From a virus (taxonomy: Duplodnaviria; Heunggongvirae; Uroviricota; Caudoviricetes): 24,991 nucleotides of DNA. The stretch is taken from IMG/VR virus record IMGVR_UViG_2706794664_000002. One strand, written 5' to 3'. Position numbers and translations under genes: made by a program. Below, piece by piece: positions 1,350 through 23,880 of the stretch. Position 1 is the first letter of the stretch; the number at the start of each line of letters is the position of its first letter. The notes below the pieces were generated by a model that did not search any database, had not been told where the DNA came from, and worked only from the letters and a program-made list of their open reading frames with translations.

Positions 1350-4025
1350 TATGCGAGCCTCACAATATAGTTAAATGCGATGTTTTTGACGGTGTTTTCC
1401 GCGTTACCAGCAGCGTTAACGGTGATGGTGTGTCCATGTGAACCAATCGCAACAGAGTGCGTATGAGCACCAATACCGACAGTATGCGCGTGTGCACCCG
1501 CAGATGCTGCTGTGCCGGACAGTGAGTGTGTATGGTTTCCTTCTGAAGATGATTTACCTACCCATTGGGAGGTGCCACTGGTTAATGAGCCACTGATACC
1601 AACCTGATTAGTCCCGCTAACTTGAGTACTCCCTGCCGGAAACATTCCAGTAGGTTGACTCCCGCTATTCGTTCTGGGCCCAGTCTGACTATGTTGGTGG
1701 GCCCCAGCTGAACTTGTAGAGCCGCTCAGACTGTGCGTATGCGCCCCGGTGTTATTCGTGGATTTAGTGCCGTAATCAAACGACGATGTGGTTTTCGTCC
1801 CCAAATCCGTACTGGATGCGCTGGCGCTGTGGGTGTGCGATTTAATGCCATCCTGTTCCTGAGACAATACGGCACGACCACTGGCGGGCTTGCCCTTAAT
1901 CGTCCAGCCACGCATATCAGGGATCACGCCTGACGGATAAGCGGCTGCAAGTTTCGGGTAAGCAGATTTGTCAAAAGTCTGCCCCTGCATCAGGGCATAA
2001 CCAGACGGAACGGTATCTGATGGCCACGGGATTGGTGCACCGACTGGATAAAACTCTGCAGGAGGATGAGCCGAGGTGTAAAGCTGCGCCCACGGCGACC
2101 AGTTTGCGTCGGTCGTATCCCGTCGTGAACGAATAAATGCCGGAGCATGAGCACCGCTTGTACCACTCCAGCCGATGAGTAACTCACCTTCGCCAACGGC
2201 TGTCATCCCTTTCAGGTGAATGATATTTCCATACGCTGTTGGATATCCGTTGTTATACACCTCGTATAACTCAAGACCTGCTGCCCCCTGCGTATTGTCT
2301 GTCAGCGCGGCTACCCGACCTTTTGAAGCCAGATTAACTGATGATACTGCTGTTCCACCTGACGGTAGCGCCCCGATCTCTGATGCCGTTGGCTTATTTC
2401 TGGAGTTATAGTCCCTTCGCCAGCCAGGTGAATAATCTGTTCCGTGATTAATATAGGTAAACTGGGCGTTGGTTGTTCCGCCACCGCTGGATGTGGTCGG
2501 AGTGGTAATGCGGATCGTCATCGCTGACTTTATCCCCATTACTTCAATGACAGCTCCGGCGAGATGAATATTACCGCAGCCAGTATCAGTAATGATTTTA
2601 TTATTGCCATAAGACCAGGAACCCTTGCACATCCAGTATGGATGGTTAAATGCTCCCTGAGAATCCAGCCACTCGATAAACTGTGCAGTCGTCCAGTTTC
2701 CTGTTGTTGTGCTTACTGACCCACCGAAGGCACGGCAGGCACCAATATTTTTCGTAAAGGTGTCTTTGCCAGGGATATCCGCACCGTTCTGATCTTTCTG
2801 CAGACGTTTCTCAGCATTGTCATTGGCTGCTTTTACTGCCTTTGGCGTTGCCGCCAGCGTTTCAGACGTGCTGTTGGTCGCGCTGCTTAGCTGGATTATC
2901 CCTTTCTGTGCTGTCGTTGCATCCTGTGCGGTGTATTTCCCGTTAGCCAGGTCATACGCGGCCTTAACGGCTTTTGGTGTTGCCGCCAGTGACTCGGAAG
3001 TGCTGTTAGTCGCACTACTGAGCTGTACTATCCCCTTTTTCGTCGTGCTCGCATCCTCAAGCGCCACGGCGGATGCAATATCCTCTGCCCGTTTTGCCGC
3101 TGTCTCAGCGCGCGTTGCTGCAGATTCCGCCGTACTTTTGCTCTGAGCTGCTGCCGTCGCACTACCAGCAGCCTCTGTCGCCTTCGTGGATGCCGTCGTG
3201 GCGCTGCCCTTCGCTGCTGACGCCTGTCTGGTCGCCTCATCTTTTGAAGCAGACGCCGATGATGCCGATGACGCCGCCGAACTGGCGGACGATGCGGCAG
3301 CCGTTTTTGAGGATTCTNNNNNNNNNNNNNNNNNNNNNNNNNNNNNNNNNNNNNNNNNNNNNNNNNNNNNNNNNNNNNNNNNNNNNNNNNNNNNNNNNNN
3401 NNNNNNNNNNNNNNNNNNNNNNNNNNNNNNNNNNNNNNNNNNNNNNNNNNNNNNNNNNNNNNNNNNNNNNNNNNNNNNNNNNNNNNNNNNNNNNNNNNNN
3501 NNNNNNNNNNNNNNNNNNNNNNNNNNNNNNNNNNNNNNNNNNNNNNNNNNNNNNNNNNNNNNNNNNNNNNNNNNNNNNNNNNNNNNNNNNNNNNNNNNNN
3601 TGATTTCTTCGCGGCTGCCGTGTTCTGTGCCACCGCGGACGCGTTACGCGCCACCTCTTCCACCATCAGCTCAAAACGGCGCAGTGCCTCCGGACGGGCA
3701 TCATCCTCCGTCATGGCACCGAGAAAATCATTCAGNNNNNNNNNNNNNNNNNNNNNNNNNNNNNNNNNNNNNNNNNNNNNNNNNNNNNNNNNNNNNNNNN
3801 NNNNNNNNNNNNNNNNNNNNNNNNNNNNNNNNNNNNNNNNNNNNNNNNNNNNNNNNNNNNNNNNNNNNNNNNNNNNNNNNNNNNNNNNNNNNNNNNNNNN
3901 NNNNNNNNNNNNNNNNNNNNNNNNNNNNNNNNNNNNNNNNNNNNNNNNNNNNNNNNNNNNNNNNNNNNNNNNNNNNNNNNNNNNNNNNNNNNNNNNNNNN
4001 NNNNNNNNNNAATCTTTACTGCCAT
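1349..4025 (-). CDS. stf: Side tail fibre protein Stf (interrupted by N blocks 3318-3600 and 3736-4010)
   Basis: N-terminus MAVKI... at complement 4023-4025; internal [33 protein letters not shown]; C-terminal half with His-rich GAHxHS repeats ending [16 protein letters not shown] (stop 1349-1351). Frame changes across the N blocks, so the length is approximate. Confidence 0.85.
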
Positions 4026-4089: not shown

Positions 4090-4667
4090 TCAGAATTTAT
4101 AACCGACACCCACGATGAAACCGTCAGTGCGCCAGAGACGTGTTGCTGTGGCGACCGTCATCACTTCCGGTCAGCACATCGTGCGTTTTCCCCTTATTGT
4201 CAGTTACGCGGATATAATCCCCGGAAAAAGTCGACACACGGCTGTAAGCCACACCCACCATCGCATACGNNNNNNNNNNNNNNNNNNNNNNNNNNNNNNN
4301 NNNNNNNNNNNNNNNNNNNNNNNNNNNNNNNNNNNNNNNNNNNNNNNNNNNNNNNNNNNNNNNNNNNNNNNNNNNNNNNNNNNNNNNNNNNNNNNNNNNN
4401 NNNNNNNNNNNNNNNNNNNNNNNNNNNNNNNNNNNNNNNNNNNNNNNNNNNNNNNNNNNNNNNNNNNNNNNNNNNNNNNNNNNNNNNNNNNNNNNNNNNN
4501 NNNNNNNNNNNNNNNNNNNNNNNNNNNNNNNNNNNNNNNNNNNNGTTGGTCCGGGCATGAAGATACCCCGCGCTCAGCGTGGACTGATGTTCAGACGCCC
4601 ATGCAGGCGCACCGGATACGGCCAGGCAAATGGCTGCGGACAAAATGGCTGCACAAACTTTACGCAT
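4090..4667 (-). CDS. lom: Outer membrane protein Lom (Ail/Lom family beta-barrel), lysogenic-conversion moron; interrupted by N block 4270-4544
   Basis: N-terminus MRKVCAAILSAAICLAVSGAPAWASEHQSTLSAGYLHARTN (signal peptide) after a GAGG Shine-Dalgarno; C-terminus ...GFIVGVGYKF* with stop at 4090-4092. Confidence 0.85.
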
Positions 4668-4737: not shown

Positions 4738-7700
4738 TCAACGAATACTGATGCCGGAAGCCGCTTTTTTGGTCACAATCACCGTACAGTCGGTGATATT
4801 GCCTGCCCCCTGATTGCCTTTCTGGAAAATCTTAAACTCCAGAGTGACGCTACCACCACCACTAGGCATATCAATAACTGCACTGTAACTACCGGGAATG
4901 GCACCTTTAGTTTCTCTGGATGCGATTAATACGCCGTTTTTGCGAACTTCAAAACCATAACCCGTGTATCGCGTGCCTCCTGGGTTATTTCCGCTCCCCG
5001 GATCGTCATACGCTATACCGTTAAAAATAATGGGCGGAATAATAATCTGGCGGTCAAAGTTATGATCATCGCTTATGGTGACTGTAACCGTCCCGTTTGG
5101 TGTTTCCGTGTTACCCCACGTACCAGCCTGTTTCGGAAATGATTTGGATACAGCTTTAACGAAGTCACCTCTGACCTGAGTCGCCTCCAGCATGCCCTTA
5201 ATCGTACAGTTTTCATTTACCGTGACATTGTTGAGCGTCCCGGCGTTCGCATTCACACTGCCACTGATATCCGCATTTTTAGCGGTCAGCTTTCCGTCCG
5301 GAGTCAGGGAAAATGCCGATGGATTTCCACCGCTGGTAATGGTGGGGGCCGTCAGGCGTTTCAGGAACACGTCGTTCATGAATATCTGATCGCCCTGACC
5401 AACAAACATCGGTTTTGTGTTGCCATTCGCAGGATTAACCATCGCAATCCTGTCCGCCGCCAGCAGCACCTGACTCTGCATGCCGTCAGGGGTGTTCTCA
5501 ATACCGGCACCAATACCCGCGATATAAAGGCGTCCGTCCTGCATCTGCTGCAGCTTCACAGCCCACATGCTGTTCAGGTTATTATTTGTATCAACCTGAA
5601 CCTTCTGTATCTGCTGAATTGCCGCACTCTGGTCTTCCAGTTTCTTATTGACGGTCTGCGTGATTTCATTGCTGACATCCGTAATGGACGTCCTGATTTC
5701 AGCCAGGTCAGGCGCAAGCTGACCGTTATCAATCTGCGTCCACAGCTCCTGAGCCAGATGGGTTTTCCCTATCTCGCCTTTGAAAAAATCCAGATAACCG
5801 GATGCATCATCACTCGGCTGACCAACAGCCTCCACGAATGCCGATTTGCCAACGGTGTTCACACTGCGGATATAAAAGTAATAATCATGGCCCGGTTTGA
5901 TATTGATACTGGCGGCTATCCAGTACAGCGCCGTGCCAAGATAGCGTGCTGTGGTTTCAACCTGCCTGATATCCGCAATCCGCTTTTCCGAGAACCAGAA
6001 CTCAAACTGTACCGTCGGATCATAAACCGCAAGATGCGGCGTGGCGGTTATCTGAAAATAGCCCGGCGTCAGCTCAATCCGCGACAGCGCTGCCGGTGCG
6101 GCAATCCGGAACGATACCGACGCCGGATCGCCCTGCTGCCCCCACGCATTTACTGCCCGGACTGTCAGCCTGTAGTTCCCCAGCGCCAGTTGTGTGAAGC
6201 GGTAAGTGGTTTCCGTCGTCCGGGCCGTGCTGACCAGCCGCTCACTGCCGTCATCCGCTGTTACGGTCAGACGGAGCAGGAAGCTCACGCCCTTCACCAC
6301 CTTCGGCGTGTCCCAGCGCGCCAGCACCTGATATTCCCCGCTGTCTGCGGTGACTTCGGCAGTCAGGTGCTGCACCGCTGGCGGCGTGACACCATTCACC
6401 GTGCCGCTCTGGTCGCCGTCAAAGTGCGCCCCGTTATCCACGATGGCTTCTTTTTCCGGCACATGCTGCACGGCGGTGATGGCATACGTGCCGTCGTCGT
6501 TCTCACGGATACTCACGCAGCGGAACAATCGCTGGTGCAGCGTCGGCAGCTTCAGCCCCCACACGCTGTATTCAGCAACACCGTCAGGAACACGGCTCAC
6601 TTTTACCTTCACGCCGTCGGTGACGGACTGGACCTCCACGCTGACCGGATTCCCCTGCCCGTNNNNNNNNNNNNNNNNNNNNNNNNNNNNNNNNNNNNNN
6701 NNNNNNNNNNNNNNNNNNNNNNNNNNNNNNNNNNNNNNNNNNNNNNNNNNNNNNNNNNNNNNNNNNNNNNNNNNNNNNNNNNNNNNNNNNNNNNNNNNNN
6801 NNNNNNNNNNNNNNNNNNNNNNNNNNNNNNNNNNNNNNNNNNNNNNNNNNNNNNNNNNNNNNNNNNNNNNNNNNNNNNNNNNNNNNNNNNNNNNNNNNNN
6901 NNNNNNNNNNNNNNNNNNNNNNNNNNNNNNGCCCCCGGCTGGTACAGCCAAAGGCATCCATCTTCGTGACGTTACGACCGTAACGGACAATGGCCTGCGT
7001 ATCCTCCACAAGCTCTGTCGCCGTCTCCCAGCCGTTATCCGGGTCAATCCAGTTCACCTCAACGGCATTATGGCGGTCTTTCAGGGCGCTGAAACTGTAG
7101 CGGAACGGCGCGCCATCATCCGGCATCACCACATTACTGCGGTTATAGGCCCACACCTTATCCGACTGTCGGTCCTGCACGAACGTCAGCGTCTGCCCGT
7201 TCCATACCGGCATACAGCGCATCGCCGAGCAGAAATCACTGAGCACATCCCACGCCTTGCGCTGTGTGGTCAGCCAGGCATTACAGGTGATGCGCGGCTC
7301 CGTGCTGCCAAAGCCGTCCGGCACCGACTGGTCACAGTACTGGCCGATGACATACAGCGCCCATTTATCCACATCTGCCGCACCAAGACGTTTCCCCATG
7401 CCATAGCGCGGATGGGTCAGCATATCCCACAGACACCAGGCCATGTTGTTGCTGTATGCCGGTTTTAACGTTCCGTCCCAGATACCGCTGTATTGCCGCG
7501 TCTGCGGATTATAGTTCGACGGCACCTGCAGAATGCGCCCGCGAAGATGATAATTACGGCTCACCTGCTGGCTGCCGAACTGCTCCGAATCCACCTGTAC
7601 GCCGACCAGTGCCGTGTTCGGGTAGCACTGTTTCACATCGATGATTTCGGTGTATGACGACCAGAGCGTTTTGTTCTGCAGCTGGTCTGTGGTGCTGTCC

Positions 7701-8989: not shown

Positions 8990-9677
8990 TTGTCGGTATA
9001 CCTCTCTCGTTTGCTCAGTTGTTCAGGAATATGGTGCAGCAGCTCGCCGTCACCACAGTAAATGGCGGCATGATTCGGCACCGATGAACCAAAACAGCAC
9101 AGCAGCACATCGCCCGGCTGCGCCGCTGACAACGGCACCTGATACAGCCCTGTGGCCTCCAGATTATCCAGATAGAGATTCTGACCGTGACGCCACCAGT
9201 CATCCTCACGATGAAAATCCGGCATCTCAATCCCCGCCAGATGGTAAGCATCCCGGAACNNNNNNNNNNNNNNNNNNNNNNNNNNNNNNNNNNNNNNNNN
9301 NNNNNNNNNNNNNNNNNNNNNNNNNNNNNNNNNNNNNNNNNNNNNNNNNNNNNNNNNNNNNNNNNNNNNNNNNNNNNNNNNNNNNNNNNNNNNNNNNNNN
9401 NNNNNNNNNNNNNNNNNNNNNNNNNNNNNNNNNNNNNNNNNNNNNNNNNNNNNNNNNNNNNNNNNNNNNNNNNNNNNNNNNNNNNNNNNNNNNNNNNNNN
9501 NNNNNNNNNNNNNNNNNNNNNNNNNNNNNNNNNNNNNNNNNNNNNNNCCGGCTCACCGGAGATATTCACGCAGGGGAAATATCTTTCCCCCTCCGGCGTT
9601 CTTACCACGAAGCCGCACGACTCCGCTGGAGCACATCGCCGGGCGTGCGCCAGAATCGCTGATTCTGTCTCTGTCAT
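8887..9677 (-). CDS. K: Tail tip assembly protein K (MPN/JAB-like N-terminal part plus NlpC/P60-like C-terminal part); N block 9260-9547 inside
   Basis: N-terminal ORF MTETESAILAHARRCAPAESCGFVV... and C-terminal ORF ...PGDVLLCCFGSSVPNHAAIYCGDGELLHHIPEQLSKRERYT... (Cys/His catalytic motifs) flank the N block; stop at 8887-8889. Confidence 0.88.
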
Positions 9678-10710: not shown

Positions 10711-13221
10711 CGTCCACCTCCGGAGAACAGGCCACCATCACGCATCTGTGTCTGAATTTCATCACGGGCACCCTTGCGGGCCATGTCATACACGGCCTTC
10801 ATCATCTGTGGACCTGGCAGACCATTCGTACCGTCGTTCTGAATCACCACGTGATTGTTCTGATTAAAATTAATGCCTTCAGCCCGCCGCATCTGCGCCG
10901 GACTTCCGGCACCGCCCACATAACCACCTTCCGCATAGCCGCGCATCAGCCGGTAGAGATTCCCCACGCCAATCCGGCTGGTTGCCTCCTTCGTGAAGAC
11001 AAATTCACCACGGTGAACAATCCCCGCTGGCTCATATTTGCCGCCGGTTCCCGTAAATCCCCCGGTTGCAAAATGGAATTTCGCCGCAGCGGCCTGAATG
11101 GCTGTACCACCTGACGCGGATGCGCCGCCACCAACAGCCCCGCCANNNNNNNNNNNNNNNNNNNNNNNNNNNNNNNNNNNNNNNNNNNNNNNNNNNNNNN
11201 NNNNNNNNNNNNNNNNNNNNNNNNNNNNNNNNNNNNNNNNNNNNNNNNNNNNNNNNNNNNNNNNNNNNNNNNNNNNNNNNNNNNNNNNNNNNNNNNNNNN
11301 NNNNNNNNNNNNNNNNNNNNNNNNNNNNNNNNNNNNNNNNNNNNNNNNNNNNNNNNNNNNNNNNNNNNNNNNNNNNNNNNNNNNNNNNNNNNNNNNNNNN
11401 NNCCAGAGGATTATCGCCATACTGTTCCTTCAGGCGCTGTTCCGTGGCTTCCCGCGCTGCCTGCCGGTCAGTCAGCCCCCGGTTTTTCGCATCAATGGCT
11501 GCCCGTTTTGCCCGTTGCTGCTGTGCGAATTTATCCGCCTGCTGCGCCAGCGCATTCAGGTGCTCCTGATACGTAACCTTGTCACCAAGTGCAGCCAGCT
11601 GGCGTTTGTACTCCAGCGTCTCGTCTTTATGCGCCAGCAGGGATTTCTCCTGTGCGGACAGCTGGCGACGTTGTGCCGCCTCCTCCAGTACCGCGAACTG
11701 ACTTTCTGCCTTCCACAAATCCCGGCGCTGCTGGCTGATTTTCTCATTCGCTCCGGCATGCTTCTCCAGCGTCCGGAGTTCTGCCTGAAGCGTCAGCAGG
11801 GCCGCATGAGCACTGTCTTCCTGACGATCGCCCGCATACACCTTCACGCCGGACTGTTTCGGCTTTTTCAGCGTCGCTTCATAATCCTTTTTCGCCGCCG
11901 CCATCAGCGTGTTGTAATCTGCCTGCAGGATTTTTCCGTCTTTCAGTGCCTTGTTCAGTTCTTCCTGACGGGCGGTATATTTCTCCAGCGGCGTCTGCAG
12001 CCGTTCGTAAGCCTTCTGCGCCTCTTCGGTATATTTCAGCCGTGACGCTTCGGTATCGCTCTGCTGCTGCGCATTTTTGTCCTGTTGACGCTGTTGATCT
12101 ACCCTCTTTTGGGCTGCATCCCGCTCCAGGCGTTTTTTTTCACGATCATCCCAGTAACGCGCCCGTGCTTCATCGTTAACGAAATAATCATCCTTGCGCA
12201 GATTCCAGATGTCGTCTGCTTTCTTAAACGCAGCCTCTGCCTTAATCAGCATCTCCTGCGCGGTATCAGGACGACCAATATCCAGCACCGCATCCCACAT
12301 GGATTTGAATGCACGTGCAGTCCTGTCTGCCCAGGTCTCCAGCGTGCCCATGTTCTCTTTCAGGCGGCGGGTCTGGTCATCAAACCCTTTCGTTGCGGCC
12401 TCGTTCGCCGCCTGCAATGCCCCGGCTTCATCGCCGGAACGCTGCAACTGAGCAACATACGCAATCTGCTCCGCCGTCACGTTATGGAACTGGCGTGCCA
12501 TCGCCGTCAGCCCCGACGTCGGGTCTGTGGTCAGCTTCCCGAAGGCTTCAGCGACCTTGTCCACCTCCACGCCGGATGCAGAGGAGAAACGCGCCACACT
12601 CTGGCTGATGGACGCAATCTGAGCCTCACCGCTTACCCCCGCCTTAACCAGTGCGCTGAGTGACTCGCTGGTCTGGTTAAACGTCAGCCCTGCCGCCTGC
12701 CCGGCTCTGGACAGGACCAGCATACGATCTGCCGTCAGTCCCGCCTGATTACCGGAAAGGACCAGCGTTTTGTTGAAATCGGACAGGGTTGAGTTGCCCT
12801 GATACCAGGCATACGCCAGCGCACCGGTCGCCACCGCCAGCGAGGTGGCCCCCACCATCGGCAGGGTGATCGCGCCGGCAAGCCCCCTGAACATGGGGAT
12901 CATCCCGCCGAAGGAGTCCTTAACCTGACCACCCTGTTGCAGCAGGATCAGCCAGGGATTCTGCCCCCCTGCAAGCTGCGTGGCCACGTCGGTGAACTGT
13001 GCAGGCAGCATACGCATGGCGGCTTTATACTGCCCGACGGAAATCCCCGCTTTCTGTGCAGCCAGCGCCTGTCGGCTCAGCGACTGTTCAACGACTGCCG
13101 CTGTTTTTTTCGCATCACTTTCCGTACCGGAAAAATGACGCCTGACTCTGGCCATCTGCTCGTCAAATCTGGCCGCATCCAGACTCAAATCAACGACCAG
13201 ATCGCCTACCGGTTCAGCCAT
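10707..13221 (-). CDS. H: Tail tape measure protein H (N block 11146-11402 inside)
   Basis: N-terminus MAEPVGDLVVDLSLDAARFDEQMARVRRHFSGTESDAKK..., long coiled-coil-like Ala/Gln/Lys/Arg-rich body, C-terminal ...GGYVGGAGSPAQMRRAEGINFNQ...GGLFSGGGR*. Confidence 0.92.
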
Positions 13222-15211: not shown

Positions 15212-15823
15212 CGCTTTATTACCATTCTCAGTTGATGCTGCAGCGCATAGCCCAGCTCTTTCGGAAGACGTTCACGCCGTATCCGTTCAATATTCTGTTT
15301 AAACGCCGTGGTCAGCGGCACCGCCATCGGGATTTTCACCACATCAATGGGGTAACGGTTTTTCCCGGCCACACGCTGCATAACATGCCACCGGCCGTTT
15401 TTCAGTTGCTGAATAAACGCGCCGGGAATACGACGGTTACCCACCANNNNNNNNNNNNNNNNNNNNNNNNNNNNNNNNNNNNNNNNNNNNNNNNNNNNNN
15501 NNNNNNNNNNNNNNNNNNNNNNNNNNNNNNNNNNNNNNNNNNNNNNNNNNNNNNNNNNNNNNNNNNNNNNNNNNNNNNNNNNNNNNNNNNNNNNNNNNNN
15601 NNNNNNNNNNNNNNNNNNNNNNNNNNNNNNNNNNNNNNNNNNNNNNNNNNNNNNNNNNNNNNNNNNNNNNNNNNNNNNNNNNNNNNNNNNNNNNNNNNNN
15701 NNNNNNNNNNNNNNNNNNNNNNNNNNNNACGCGGTTAATGGCCATTGCGGCGGCACCGGGCACCGCCGTTTTGCTGATACGGCTGAGGTTTTCAACGGCC
15801 TGCTCAAGACCTTTTATGGCCAT
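15208..15823 (-). CDS. Z: Tail completion protein Z (N block 15447-15728 inside)
   Basis: N-terminus MAIKGLEQAVENLSRISKTAVPGAAAMAINR and C-terminus ...VGNRRIPGAFIQQLKNGRWHVMQRVAGKNRYPIDVVKIPMA...RMVIKR* flank the N block. Confidence 0.88.
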
Positions 15824-18061: not shown

Positions 18062-18681
18062 CTTACACTGGTGTGTTCAGCAAATCGTTAACGGCATCAG
18101 ATGCCGGGTTACCTGCAGCCAGCGGTGCCGGTGCCNNNNNNNNNNNNNNNNNNNNNNNNNNNNNNNNNNNNNNNNNNNNNNNNNNNNNNNNNNNNNNNNN
18201 NNNNNNNNNNNNNNNNNNNNNNNNNNNNNNNNNNNNNNNNNNNNNNNNNNNNNNNNNNNNNNNNNNNNNNNNNNNNNNNNNNNNNNNNNNNNNNNNNNNN
18301 NNNNNNNNNNNNNNNNNNNNNNNNNNNNNNNNNNNNNNNNNNNNNNNNNNNNNNNNNNNNNNNNNNNNNNNNNNNNNNNNNNNNNNNNNNCTCCGTCGCT
18401 TGCACCACGCCAGTAACGTCAGCCTGCGAAGCAGTGGCTGAAACAGTTGTTGATTGAGTCTCTTTGGTCATTCGCCCTCCTGAGAGACGGGATTTACGTG
18501 CATCCAGTGCATCACGCATGACGGTGATCGCATCGGTACTGTTAACAAGTTCATCAGCCAGTCCGGCATCAATGGCCTCCTGACCGCTGTACACTGCAGC
18601 CTCGGTATCCAGCACAGCCTGCACGGACAGGCCGGTATATGCCGACACCTTCTGTGCAAACATCCGGCGGGTTGCATCCAT
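18062..18681 (-). CDS. nu3: Scaffolding protein Nu3 (in-frame internal start within C, sharing its C-terminus)
   Basis: Internal Met at C residue 239 ([19 protein letters not shown]...), which corresponds to the lambda Nu3 start as I recall it. A second in-frame Met at 18469-18471 has a strong AGGAGG Shine-Dalgarno, so the true start is uncertain. Confidence 0.5.
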
Positions 18682-19395
18682 CCGGGACTGCAATGTTTCC
18701 CGGACATCATCCGGTAGATGGCTGTAGGGGTTGCCATCCACCTTATGGCTGCCGCTGTAAATCAGCGTGATTTCCACGCCCTGTTTCTCCAGTGCAGCGC
18801 CGTAATTACTGTGAGCCATCATGACGCCGATGGAGCCTGTCCGGGCGGTCTGCGTGACCAGACGCCGGGAGGCGGCACTGGCAAGCAGCTGACCTGCGCT
18901 GCAGTTCATGTCATTGGCCAGCGCCCATACCGGCTTTATGTCACGCACACGGGCGATGATGTCAGCGCAGTCAAATGCTCCCGCCACCATTCCGCCCGGT
19001 GTGTCCATATCGAGCAGAATGCCGTCCACCATCGGGTCGCTGGCAGCCTGTTGCAGACGGGCGATAATGCCGTTGTAACCGGTCATCCCCGAGTACGGCT
19101 GCAGCGCCCGCGTCCGGCTGACCAGCGTGCCGGACACCGGCAGCACGGCGATGCCGTTCATTACCTGATAACTGCGGGCCTGTCGTGGTCCGTCATCATC
19201 ACCGGATAACGCCAGCGCCGCGGGTGCCTCTCCGGCAGTCAGGCTGTCGCCGGATACTGCATCCGTCAGGCAGCTGATCCCAAGCTGGCCTGCAAGCGCA
19301 CAAAAGAAAACCCGCGCATAGGCGGGTTCAAGCATCAGCGGCTCATTAAAAGCCATGCTGGCAATATGCGGGAGATTACGCAGCTCTGCTGTCAC
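18062..19395 (-). CDS. C: Capsid assembly protease C (ClpP/S49-like minor capsid protein); N block 18136-18390 inside
   Basis: GTG start at complement 19393-19395, preceded by GAGGAGG and overlapping the 3' end of B; sequence (V)[30 protein letters not shown]...; C-terminus ...[15 protein letters not shown] with stop at 18062-18064 (frame re-derived by hand after the N block). Confidence 0.88.
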
Positions 19396-20985
19396 TCTTC
19401 TCCTCCTCTGTTGATTGTCGCAGCCCGGATTCAAATGCCGCAGCCGCCCAGGCGGGCGGTTTAAGACCAGCTGCGCGGCGCTCCATCGTTTCACGGACCT
19501 GCTGGGCAAAAATTTCCTGATAGTCGTCACCGCGTTTCGCGCACTCTTTCTCGTAGGTGCTCAGTCCGGCTTCTATCAGCATCACCGCTTCCTGAACTTC
19601 TTTCAGACCATCGATGGCCATACGACCGGAGCCTATCCAGTCGCAGTTCCCCCAGGCACTGCGGGCTTCCTGAAAGCTGAAGCGCGCTTTTGAAGGTAAC
19701 GTCACCACGCGGCGAACGATGGCCTCTTCCAGCCAGCACAGAAACATCTGGCTCGCCTGACGGGATGCGACGAATTTTCGCCGCCCCATAAAGTACGCCC
19801 ACGACTCGTTCGCACTGGCCCGTGCCGTGGAGTAGCTCATCTGGGCGTAATTCCGGGAAAGTTGCTCATACGAGACACCCAGCCCGGCAGCGATATACCG
19901 CAACAGTGACTGCTCAAACACGGAGTAGCCGTTATCCGTGTCCTGAGCCGTCTGCAGGTTCAGTGAGTCCCCCGGCATCAGGTGCGGCACTTTTGCGCCT
20001 CCCAGACGGACCGGTGCTGCGGCGTAATACGCGGCAATTTCACCAATCCAGCCCGTCAGCCTTTCCCGCTGCTCCTTACTGTTCGCGCCCAGAATAAAAT
20101 CCATCGCTGACTGCGTATCCAGCTCACTTTCAATGGTGGCGGCATACATCGCCTTCACAATGGCGCTCTGCAGCTGCGTGTTCTGCAGCGTGTCGAGCAT
20201 CTTCATCTGCTCCATTACGCTGTAAAACACATTTGCACCGCGGGTCTGCCCGTCCTCCACGGGTTCAAAAACGTGAATGAACGAGGCGCGCCCGCCGGGT
20301 AACTCACGGGGTATCCATGTCCATTTCTGCGGCATCCAGCCAGGATAGCCGTCCTCGCTGACGTAATATCCCAGCGCCGCACCGCTGTCATTAATCTGCA
20401 CACCGGCACGGCAGTTCCGGCTGTCGCCGGTATTGTTCGGGTTGCTGATGCGCTTCGGGCTGACCATCCGGAACTGTGTCCGGAAAAGCCGCGACGAACT
20501 GGTATCCCAGGTGGCCTGAACGAACAGTTCACCGTTAAAGGCGTGCATGGCCACACCTTCCCGAATCATCATGGTAAACGTGCGTTTTCGCTCAACGTCA
20601 ATGCAGCAGCAGTCATCCTCGGCAAACTCTTTCCATGCCGCTTCAACCTCGCGGGAAAAGGCACGGGCGTCTTCCTCCCCGATGCCCAGATAGCGCCAGC
20701 TTGGGCGATGACTGAGCCGGAAAAAAGACCCGACGATATGATCCTGATGCAGCTGGATGGCGTTGGCAGCATAGCCGTTATTGCGTACCAGATCGTCTGC
20801 GCGGGCATTGCCACGGGTAAANNNNNNNNNNNNNNNNNNNNNNNNNNNNNNNNNNNNNNNNNNNNNNNNNNNNNNNNNNNNNNNNNNNNNNNNNNNNNNN
20901 NNNNNNNNNNNNNNNNNNNNNNNNNNNNNNNNNNNNNNNNNNNNNNNNNNNNNNNNNNNNNNNNNNNNNNNNNNNNNNNNNNNNN
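19376..20985 (-). CDS. B: Portal protein B (N-terminal ~50 codons fall in N block 20822-21081; start coordinate approximate)
   Basis: Readable sequence from ...FTRGNARADDLVRNNGYAANAIQLHQDH... through ...MMIREGVAMHAFNGELFVQATWDTSSSRLFRTQFRMVSPKRISNPNN... to ...[12 protein letters not shown]; stop at 19376-19378. Confidence 0.88.
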
Positions 20986-20990
20986 NNNNN

Positions 20991-23110
<2,120 letters not shown>

Positions 23111-23136
<26 letters not shown>

Positions 23137-23656
23137 TCAGCAACCCCGGTATCAGTTCATCCAGCGCGGCTGCTTTGTTCATGGCTTTGATGATATCCCG
23201 TTTCAGGAAATCAACATGTCGGTTTTCCAGTTCCGGAAAACGCCGCTGCACCGACAGGGGGATCCCGTCGAGAATACTGGCAATTTCACCTGCGATCCGC
23301 GACAGCACGAAAGTACAGAATGCGGTTTCCACCACTTCAGCGGAGTCTCTGGCATTTTTCAGCTCCTGTGCGTCGGCCTGCGCACGCGTAAGTCGATGGC
23401 GTTCGTACTCAATAGTCCCTGGCTGGAGATCTGTCTCGCTGGCCTGCCGCAGTTCTTCAACTTCCCGGCGCAGCTTTTCGTTCTCAATTTCAGCATCCCT
23501 TTCGGCATACCATCTTATAACGGCGGCAGAGTCATAAAGCACCTCATTACCCTTGCCACCGCCTCGCAGAACGGGCATTCCCTGTTCCTGCCAGTTCTGA
23601 ATGGTACGGATACTCGCACCGAAAATGTCAGCCAGCTGCTTTTTGTTGACTTCCAT
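23111..23656 (-). CDS. nu1: Terminase small subunit Nu1
   Basis: 181-aa ORF MEVNKKQLADIFGASIRTIQNWQEQGMPVLRGGGKGNEVLYDSAAVIRWYAERDAEIENEKLRRE... (winged-helix DNA-binding N-terminus). Confidence 0.93.
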
Positions 23657-23669
23657 TGTTCATTCCACG

Positions 23670-23880
23670 GACAAAAACAGAGAAAGGAAACGACAGAGGC
23701 CAAAAAGCCCGTTTTCAGCACCTGTCGTTTCCTTTCTTTTCAGGGGGTGTTTTAAATAAAAACATTAGGTTACGGCGAAGAAGAACGGAAACGCCTTAAA
23801 CCGGAAAATTGTCATAAATAGCGAAAACCCGCGCGCCTTCCGCCCCGTAACCTGTCGGATCGCCGGAAAGGACCCGCAAA
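23670..23880 (-). promoter_or_regulatory. cos DNA packaging site (cosB next to nu1, cosN nicking region about 23834-23845, cosQ-side right-end sequence to about 23880)
   Basis: In lambda orientation the sequence reads ...TTCCGGCGATCCGACAGGTTACG / GGGCGGAAGGCG / CGCGGGTTTTCGCTATTTATGACAATTTTCCGGTTTAAGGCGTTTCCGTTCTTCTTCG..., i.e. the lambda right end joined to the lambda left end, apart from the central 6 nt of cosN and a few SNPs. Confidence 0.75.

Follow-up and report, generated by a model that had tools for sequence, protein, structure and literature searches.

A common right-half variant of cosN in a lambda-type prophage, with a predicted cohesive end different from that of lambda

The window, which is the whole stretch of 24,991 nucleotides analysed here, carries a lambda-type cos site on its minus strand, in which bp 7-12 of the cohesive end read AAGGCG and not CGACCT as in lambda. 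Judged from sequence comparison, this is most likely (probability about 85%) a functional cos of lambda specificity with a different 12-nt overhang of equal stability. The finding is real and also ordinary, since AAGGCG is a common natural allele, its changes lie in the tolerant half of cosN and the cutting enzyme is unchanged.

The window was recognized as the late (morphogenesis) region of a lambda-type prophage on the minus strand, and tblastn with lambda proteins identified Nu1, A, W, B, C, D, E, FI, FII, Z, U, V, G, H, M, L, K, I, J and tail-fibre genes in lambda order. The head proteins and most tail proteins were 94-100% identical to those of lambda, and the C-terminal parts of H and J, lom and the side-tail-fibre genes were more diverged. 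The heptamer GGGTCCT in the cos region is taken to be cosQ, following the work of the Feiss laboratory. The features are as follows.

23869..23875, minus strand: cosQ (GGGTCCT), at -30..-24, the lambda distance from cosN (lambda bp 48473-48479)
23832..23847, minus strand: 16-bp cosN, the cohesive end plus the conserved CG dinucleotide outside each nick position (definition of PMC9026076)
23834..23845, minus strand: predicted 12-nt cohesive-end sequence GGGCGGAAGGCG, from alignment to lambda and DE3; bp 1-6 (GGGCGG) as in lambda
23834..23839, minus strand: variant right-half block, bp 7-12, AAGGCG versus CGACCT in lambda, differing at bp 7, 8, 9, 10 and 12
23781..23796 (cos bp 50-65), minus strand: cosB R3, AGGCGTTTCCGTTCTT, lambda-identical (R3 coordinates from PMC9026076)
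23722..23737, minus strand: cosB R2, an inverted R repeat, AGAAAGGAAACGACAG, lambda-identical, recognized by 16-bp identity with R1 (inverted) (PMC9026076)
23681..23696, minus strand: cosB R1, CTGTCGTTTCCTTTCT, lambda-identical
23111..23656, minus strand: Nu1 (TerS), 181 aa, 98.3% identical to lambda, with K48R, A75T and L132I only
21194..23136, minus strand: A (TerL/gpA), start codon GTG, with only T151S and D185E against lambda in residues 1-406, and residues 490-641 identical
3318-3600, 3736-4010, 4270-4544, 6663-6930, 9260-9547, 11146-11402, 15447-15728, 18136-18390, 20822-21081 and 21655-21916: ten N-runs, 255-288 nt each, 2705 nt in total

The N-runs are either scaffold gaps or deliberate masking. 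Apparent frameshifts in A, W/B, C, Z, H, K, J and the tail-fibre region, which could be taken for a decayed prophage, are these ten N-runs and not mutations.

Read directly from the window, positions 23834-23845 are CGCCTTCCGCCC on the plus strand and GGGCGGAAGGCG on the minus strand (23845..23834). The 12-mer is flanked by GATCCGACAGGTTACG on one side and CGCGGGTTTTCGCTATTTATGA on the other, both nearly lambda-identical, and in its minus-strand context it is preceded by GGGTCCTTTCCGGCGATCCGACAGGTTACG and followed by CGCGGGTTTTCGCTATTTATGACAATTTTCCGG. In lambda (NC_001416), bp 1-12 are GGGCGGCGACCT, followed by CGCGGGTTTTCGCTATTTATGA and reading onward as CGCGGGTTTTCGCTATTTATGAAAATTTTCCGG, and the 'cos site' annotation of the DE3 record lies on the same 12 bases. 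An earlier note on this DNA had compared it with the core of lambda, and the lambda core that it gave was right: the NC_001416 start and the DE3 annotation agree on GGGCGGCGACCT. Alignment to both records also bears out its observation that the window has a different 12-mer between near-identical lambda flanks. The clustered 6-nt substitution that it described holds as a cluster within a 6-bp block, with five substitutions in place of six (bp 7, 8, 9, 10 and 12, i.e. 5 of the 12 cohesive-end bases), C11 being conserved. Within cosN, the changes against lambda are confined to bp 7-12. As the surrounding 1.9 kb is 98.2% identical to lambda, where about 2e-5 blocks of 6 nt with at least 5 changes would be expected, a cluster of five in six is far beyond chance.

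The 16-bp cosN has rotational symmetry at 8 of its 16 positions in the window versus 10 of 16 in lambda. By nearest-neighbour calculation, the duplex stability of the predicted overhang is -17.8 kcal/mol versus -18.2 kcal/mol for that of lambda, with 10 of 12 bases G or C in both. A CGCGCG run is newly formed across the bottom-strand nick, and CG is repeated at bp 11-16.

The other cos subsites around the block match lambda, in agreement with the reading of the site in the earlier note as the cosN core of a lambda-type cos. The cohesive end's left half (bp 1-6, GGGCGG) is unchanged, and CG dinucleotides are kept directly outside both nick positions, 12 bp apart, with TTACG before the 12-mer and CGCGGG after it; conserved CG pairs flanking the nick positions are a mark of cosN (PMC4669245; PMC9303873). 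Downstream of cosN, bp 13-33 are lambda-identical, and the spacing from cosN to R3 is the same as in lambda. The complex cosB, scored by R3, R2 and R1 and not separately for the I1/IHF site, is followed by terS and terL, with Nu1 starting at cos bp 190. Across 52 loci whose bp 7 is A (AAGGCG in about 50), cosQ was nearly invariant (pi 0.005). Non-coding SNPs at cos bp 71, 97, 134 and 137 are enriched with AAGGCG, and this SNP haplotype was also seen with the canonical allele, e.g. in Stx1 phages.

The earlier note had held the block to be possibly unusual, and in fact AAGGCG ranks second in frequency among the cosN alleles of lambda-type E. coli prophages. An exact 25-mer spanning the block was found in 29 IMG/VR contigs, and an open scan allowing any bases at bp 8-12 revealed 56 IMG/VR loci lacking C at bp 7, of which about 50 have AAGGCG. 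The allele frequency was estimated from complete E. coli genomes, and the canonical count from IMG/VR is a lower bound. The alleles at cos sites with lambda-type flanks were:

CGACCT (canonical): more than 120 IMG/VR loci; 117 of 120 among the matches listed
AAGGCG: about 50 IMG/VR loci
AGACCT: 1 IMG/VR locus, with a second copy in GenBank phage PhiR70_1
TGACCT: 2 IMG/VR loci
AAGGCT, AAGCGT, CGACCG, CAGACG, CAGGCG and CTGACG: 1 IMG/VR locus each

In one more locus bp 7 is C and bp 12 is T but bp 8 is not G, and none of the IMG/VR cos sites with lambda-type flanks combines CG at bp 7-8 with a base other than A at bp 9. AAGGCG is by far the commonest non-canonical allele in this set. The rare alleles (loci L187, L184, L185, L186, L188, L003/L175 and L169/L174) lie between or alongside the two major ones; CAGGCG and AAGGCT are one step from AAGGCG, and CGACCG, AGACCT and TGACCT one step from lambda. 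In a comparison made with purifying selection in mind, nucleotide diversity among loci with A at bp 7 was 0.089 at bp 8-12 versus 0.076-0.17 in neighbouring non-coding sequence, a comparison confounded because about 10% of these loci have non-homologous right flanks and are probably satellites.

A 51-nt allele-specific query, in which every 28-nt megablast seed must include the block, located AAGGCG in 159 of 5426 complete E. coli genomes, at 170 places, 16 of them on plasmids. A 121-nt query able to match both alleles found a lambda-like cos of any kind in 4172 of the same 5426 genomes, a set with about 7000 cos places in all. AAGGCG is present in two GenBank phage records, PhiR46_1 (host field ECOR13, Nu1 and A intact) and YDC107_1. 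A literature search gave no relevant paper on the PhiR phage set, and the origin of PhiR46_1 is known from its GenBank host field alone. One GTDB species representative with the allele was found, Escherichia sp. E1V33, and complete phage-plasmids of N15 type, about 46 kb in size, and at least one satellite also have it. Over the IMG/VR and other loci, AAGGCG occurs with at least 12 different cosQ-cosN spacers and with several unrelated upstream sequences.

Natural cosN variation was the subject of a dedicated survey by Vahanian et al. in 2017 (Virology 509:140). As that survey is summarized in a citing paper, conservation is high in the first 4 bp and, on either side, in the two flanking bp (PMC9303873). 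Lambda-like phages commonly differ at bp 7-12, N15 and phiD326 doing so at 9 and 12 and Gifsy-1 at 8, 9 and 11 (PMC4669245), and the cosN of mEp213 and LLS is GGGCGGCGCGCT (PMC12315714). Many engineered mutations at bp 7-12 have a minimal phenotype, whereas the symmetric mutations in the left half are severe (PMC4669245, Feiss 2015, citing Xu and Feiss 1991). This asymmetry exists because TerL is anchored to R3 through TerS and its nicking of the bottom strand depends little on the local sequence (PMC4669245). In the same work TerL-lambda gave the same yield with cosN-N15 as with cosN-lambda, an end mismatch of 2 nt was viable at a yield cost of about 4-fold, and bp 7-12 were concluded not to be under selection (PMC4669245).

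Compared with these systems, the window shares with lambda the cosQ heptamer, the cosQ-cosN spacing, bp 1-6, the flanking CG, bp 13-33, R3/R2/R1 and the Nu1 start position, together with a Nu1 that is 98% identical and a gpA that is at least 99.5% identical where readable; it departs from lambda in bp 7-12, in the reduced symmetry and in a predicted overhang that would not be complementary to that of lambda. The cohesive end of N15, confirmed from the N15 sequence as GGGCGGCGTCCG and shared by phiD326, is likewise a natural variant of the right half only, with the left half and flanking CG kept and the G at bp 12 in common with the window, and it was shown experimentally that TerL-lambda cuts cosN-N15 as efficiently as cosN-lambda (PMC4669245). 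However, N15 is only two positions (9 and 12) off lambda, its diverged TerL (about 65% identical) and its TerS are its own and its cosB contains a single R, unlike the window with its five changes and its lambda-type terminase and cosB. In mEp213/LLS and Gifsy-1 natural variation is also confined to bp 7-12 of a lambda-like cosN, but with other sequences and fewer changes. The cos sites of PICIs combine helper-like cosQ and cosN with a different cosB (Fillol-Salom et al.; Feiss 2022, PMC9026076), whereas the window has a phage cos with lambda cosB and Nu1/A. AAGGCG fits the known pattern of bp 7-12 variation and is the most extreme natural example found here. The allele appears to be new, or at least unannotated; natural variation at bp 7-12 and its tolerance were already published. 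A literature search for the literal 12-mer GGGCGGAAGGCG gave no relevant match, the sole match being an unrelated plant paper.

By homology with lambda, Nu1 would bind R3, R2 and R1 of the lambda-identical cosB and thereby anchor gpA on cosN, gpA would make two nicks 12 bp apart, each at a conserved CG-flanked position, and cosQ would direct termination. The bottom-strand nick beside cosB would be positioned by the TerS-R3 anchor and not by local sequence, so that the right half could vary freely without a change of terminase. The product would be a 5' overhang GGGCGGAAGGCG, equal to that of lambda in length, GC content and duplex stability and complementary only to ends of its own allele. As no GenBank phage record starts at the end GGGCGGAAGGCG, the 12-nt overhang is one that we infer, and we infer as well that nick positions and cutting efficiency at the AAGGCG cosN would be as in lambda. 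The distinct cohesive end proposed in the earlier note is upheld on this basis: if the nicks are made at the conserved positions, it would mismatch the lambda end at 5 of its 12 bases. Cross-annealing with lambda ends should fail, since pairing would be possible at only bp 1-6 and bp 11.

It could also be that AAGGCG and CGACCT are selectively maintained types of cohesive-end compatibility, which limit cos-to-cos packaging and end-joining between co-resident lambda-like elements. The dominance of two alleles is suggestive, the canonical one with more than 120 loci and AAGGCG with about 50, each other allele being seen once or twice, and AAGGCG is common to prophages, N15-type phage-plasmids and a satellite. 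The 4-fold yield cost of a mere 2-nt end mismatch (PMC4669245) points the same way, and mixed-allele chromosomes from tandem or mixed concatemers could not cyclize, because 5 of 12 positions would be mismatched. If this were true, the allele would be a barrier of packaging and recombination isolation and not neutral variation. However, the two-allele pattern may just as well stem from a recent common ancestor together with recombination, the E. coli phages being very similar to each other, mixed-cos packaging is rare in nature, and the literature holds that bp 7-12 are not under selection (PMC4669245). Such selection is considered unlikely.

The terminase of the window is that of lambda in nearly every readable residue. 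The winged-HTH region of Nu1 (residues 1-40) is lambda-identical, and the readable parts of gpA are 99.5-100% identical to lambda; residues 407-489 are unreadable because of the N-run at 21655-21916 and are intact in other AAGGCG carriers. Suppressors of cosN mutations were reportedly obtained by Arens et al. in 1999 at gpA positions 509 and 515, both within residues 490-641, which are lambda-identical in the window. Among the variant loci with enough flank, 27 of 30 encode an uninterrupted 641-aa gpA with 98.9-99.8% identity to lambda, and canonical loci with lambda-type gpA fall in the same range. A column-by-column comparison of 27 variant and 33 canonical loci found no TerL or TerS residue fixed between the alleles, and 2 TerL and 4 TerS protein sequences were common to both groups. 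No terminase change accompanies the allele, as would be the case for a tolerated right-half variant. The intact carriers, phage record PhiR46_1 and the phage-plasmids are indirect signs that the variant may be cut and packaged with normal efficiency.

These data bear on a further explanation, that the allele alters terminase cutting, through a co-adapted gpA, a lower efficiency or a shifted bottom-strand nick, e.g. one giving a 10-nt overhang via CGCGCG. Five of the six right-half bases differ and two symmetric positions are lost; five simultaneous changes in this half exceed any natural or engineered variant with documented cutting that was found, which counts against the main reading. The CGCGCG run, with its repeated CG dinucleotides at bp 11-16, offers in principle alternative CG-flanked nick registers, so that there is a small possibility of an altered register. 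On the other side, the terminase has no residue that varies together with the allele, the same terminase proteins are seen beside either allele, the gpA region with the reported suppressor positions is that of lambda and the cosN-R3 spacing is unchanged. The published asymmetry of cosN and the positioning of the nick by the R3 anchor also predict tolerance (PMC4669245), and an effect on cutting is rated as quite unlikely.

The altered gpA nicking that the earlier note had raised is not supported, since the changes lie only in the tolerant bp 7-12, cosQ, bp 1-6, the CG pairs and R3/R2/R1 with their spacing are lambda-identical, and gpA and Nu1 have no allele-specific residue. The incompatibility with lambda packaging that it had suggested is not supported either: TerL-lambda cuts cosN-lambda and cosN-N15 equally (PMC4669245), and the other cos subsites are lambda-identical. 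Lambda terminase and packaging extracts should accept the AAGGCG site.

It was also considered whether the block could have arisen by neutral decay, the cos being dead in defective prophages that have ceased to package their DNA. Most carriers are prophages, which may not be inducible, gene E of one of them is interrupted by an inserted element, and A is truncated in a few, namely L022 and also L182, whose allele is the related AAGCGT. A defective state is also possible for the prophage of the window, which counts against the main reading. Decay, however, would not give one identical block of five substitutions over at least 12 flanking haplotypes, and it is opposed by the perfect conservation of all remaining cos subsites, by an intact gpA in 27 of 30 carriers and by the presence of the allele in phage record PhiR46_1 (host listed as ECOR13) and in full-length 46-kb phage-plasmids, which make it very unlikely. 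An assembly or sequencing artefact of this contig, to which its gapped or masked state with ten N-runs might point and which the earlier note had named as a ground for giving up its claim, can practically be dismissed, the nearest N-run being about 1.9 kb from cosN and the same allele recurring elsewhere: about 50 independent contigs of IMG/VR have it, as do 159 complete genomes of E. coli, two phage records in GenBank and one representative genome of GTDB.

For a functional lambda-specificity cos with a different overhang, the consequences are mainly practical. Tools that seek the literal lambda 12-mer for annotation or prediction of termini would overlook the cos of roughly 2-4% of the lambda-type prophages in E. 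coli. DNA of AAGGCG phages is not expected to anneal or ligate to lambda arms via cos; compatibility with cosmid and in vitro packaging should persist, given that cosQ and cosB as well as the left half of cosN are of lambda type. AAGGCG illustrates the published functional asymmetry of cosN, with five of six right-half bases replaced and the terminase unchanged, and no new mechanism is implied.

Several carriers of the allele have features of their own. The AAGGCG 'plasmids' of about 46 kb, L189 (NZ_CP101200.1, the whole 46,173-bp record), L035 (PhiR46_1) and L036 (YDC107_1), are N15-type telomere phage-plasmids which carry protelomerase, a large RepA and SopAB. For terminase, head and tail they have genes of lambda type and not of N15 type, with gpA about 99% lambda-identical, and YDC107_1 is classed as Ravinvirus despite its lambda packaging module. 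Locus L022 (IMGVR_UViG_3300039332_000035, minus strand, cos at about 1561) has an AAGGCG cos in which everything beyond cos bp 33 is unrelated to lambda cosB, and homology to gpA begins at residue 56, only about 290 nt downstream of cos; this looks like a deletion or rearrangement that removed cosB, Nu1 and the start of A, or like a chimeric assembly.

A satellite-like element of about 11 kb was observed inside the major capsid gene E of a lambda-type prophage, at 26151-38452 of L037 (E. coli APEC E14033, NZ_CP126948) and at about 1-6430 of L007. It encodes an integrase, a primase, an SSB, its own major capsid and decoration proteins and an HTH protein, and resembles a capsid-forming PICI that targets the capsid gene of its helper. 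The L007 element adds a TerS-like gene and a cos of its own, with cosQ and an AAGGCG cosN followed by a non-lambda cosB, i.e. the PICI pattern with the AAGGCG allele. In the APEC prophage of L037, the virulence-associated gene iss (increased serum survival, a bor homologue) is located at 18969-19262, about 750 bp upstream of the variant cos.
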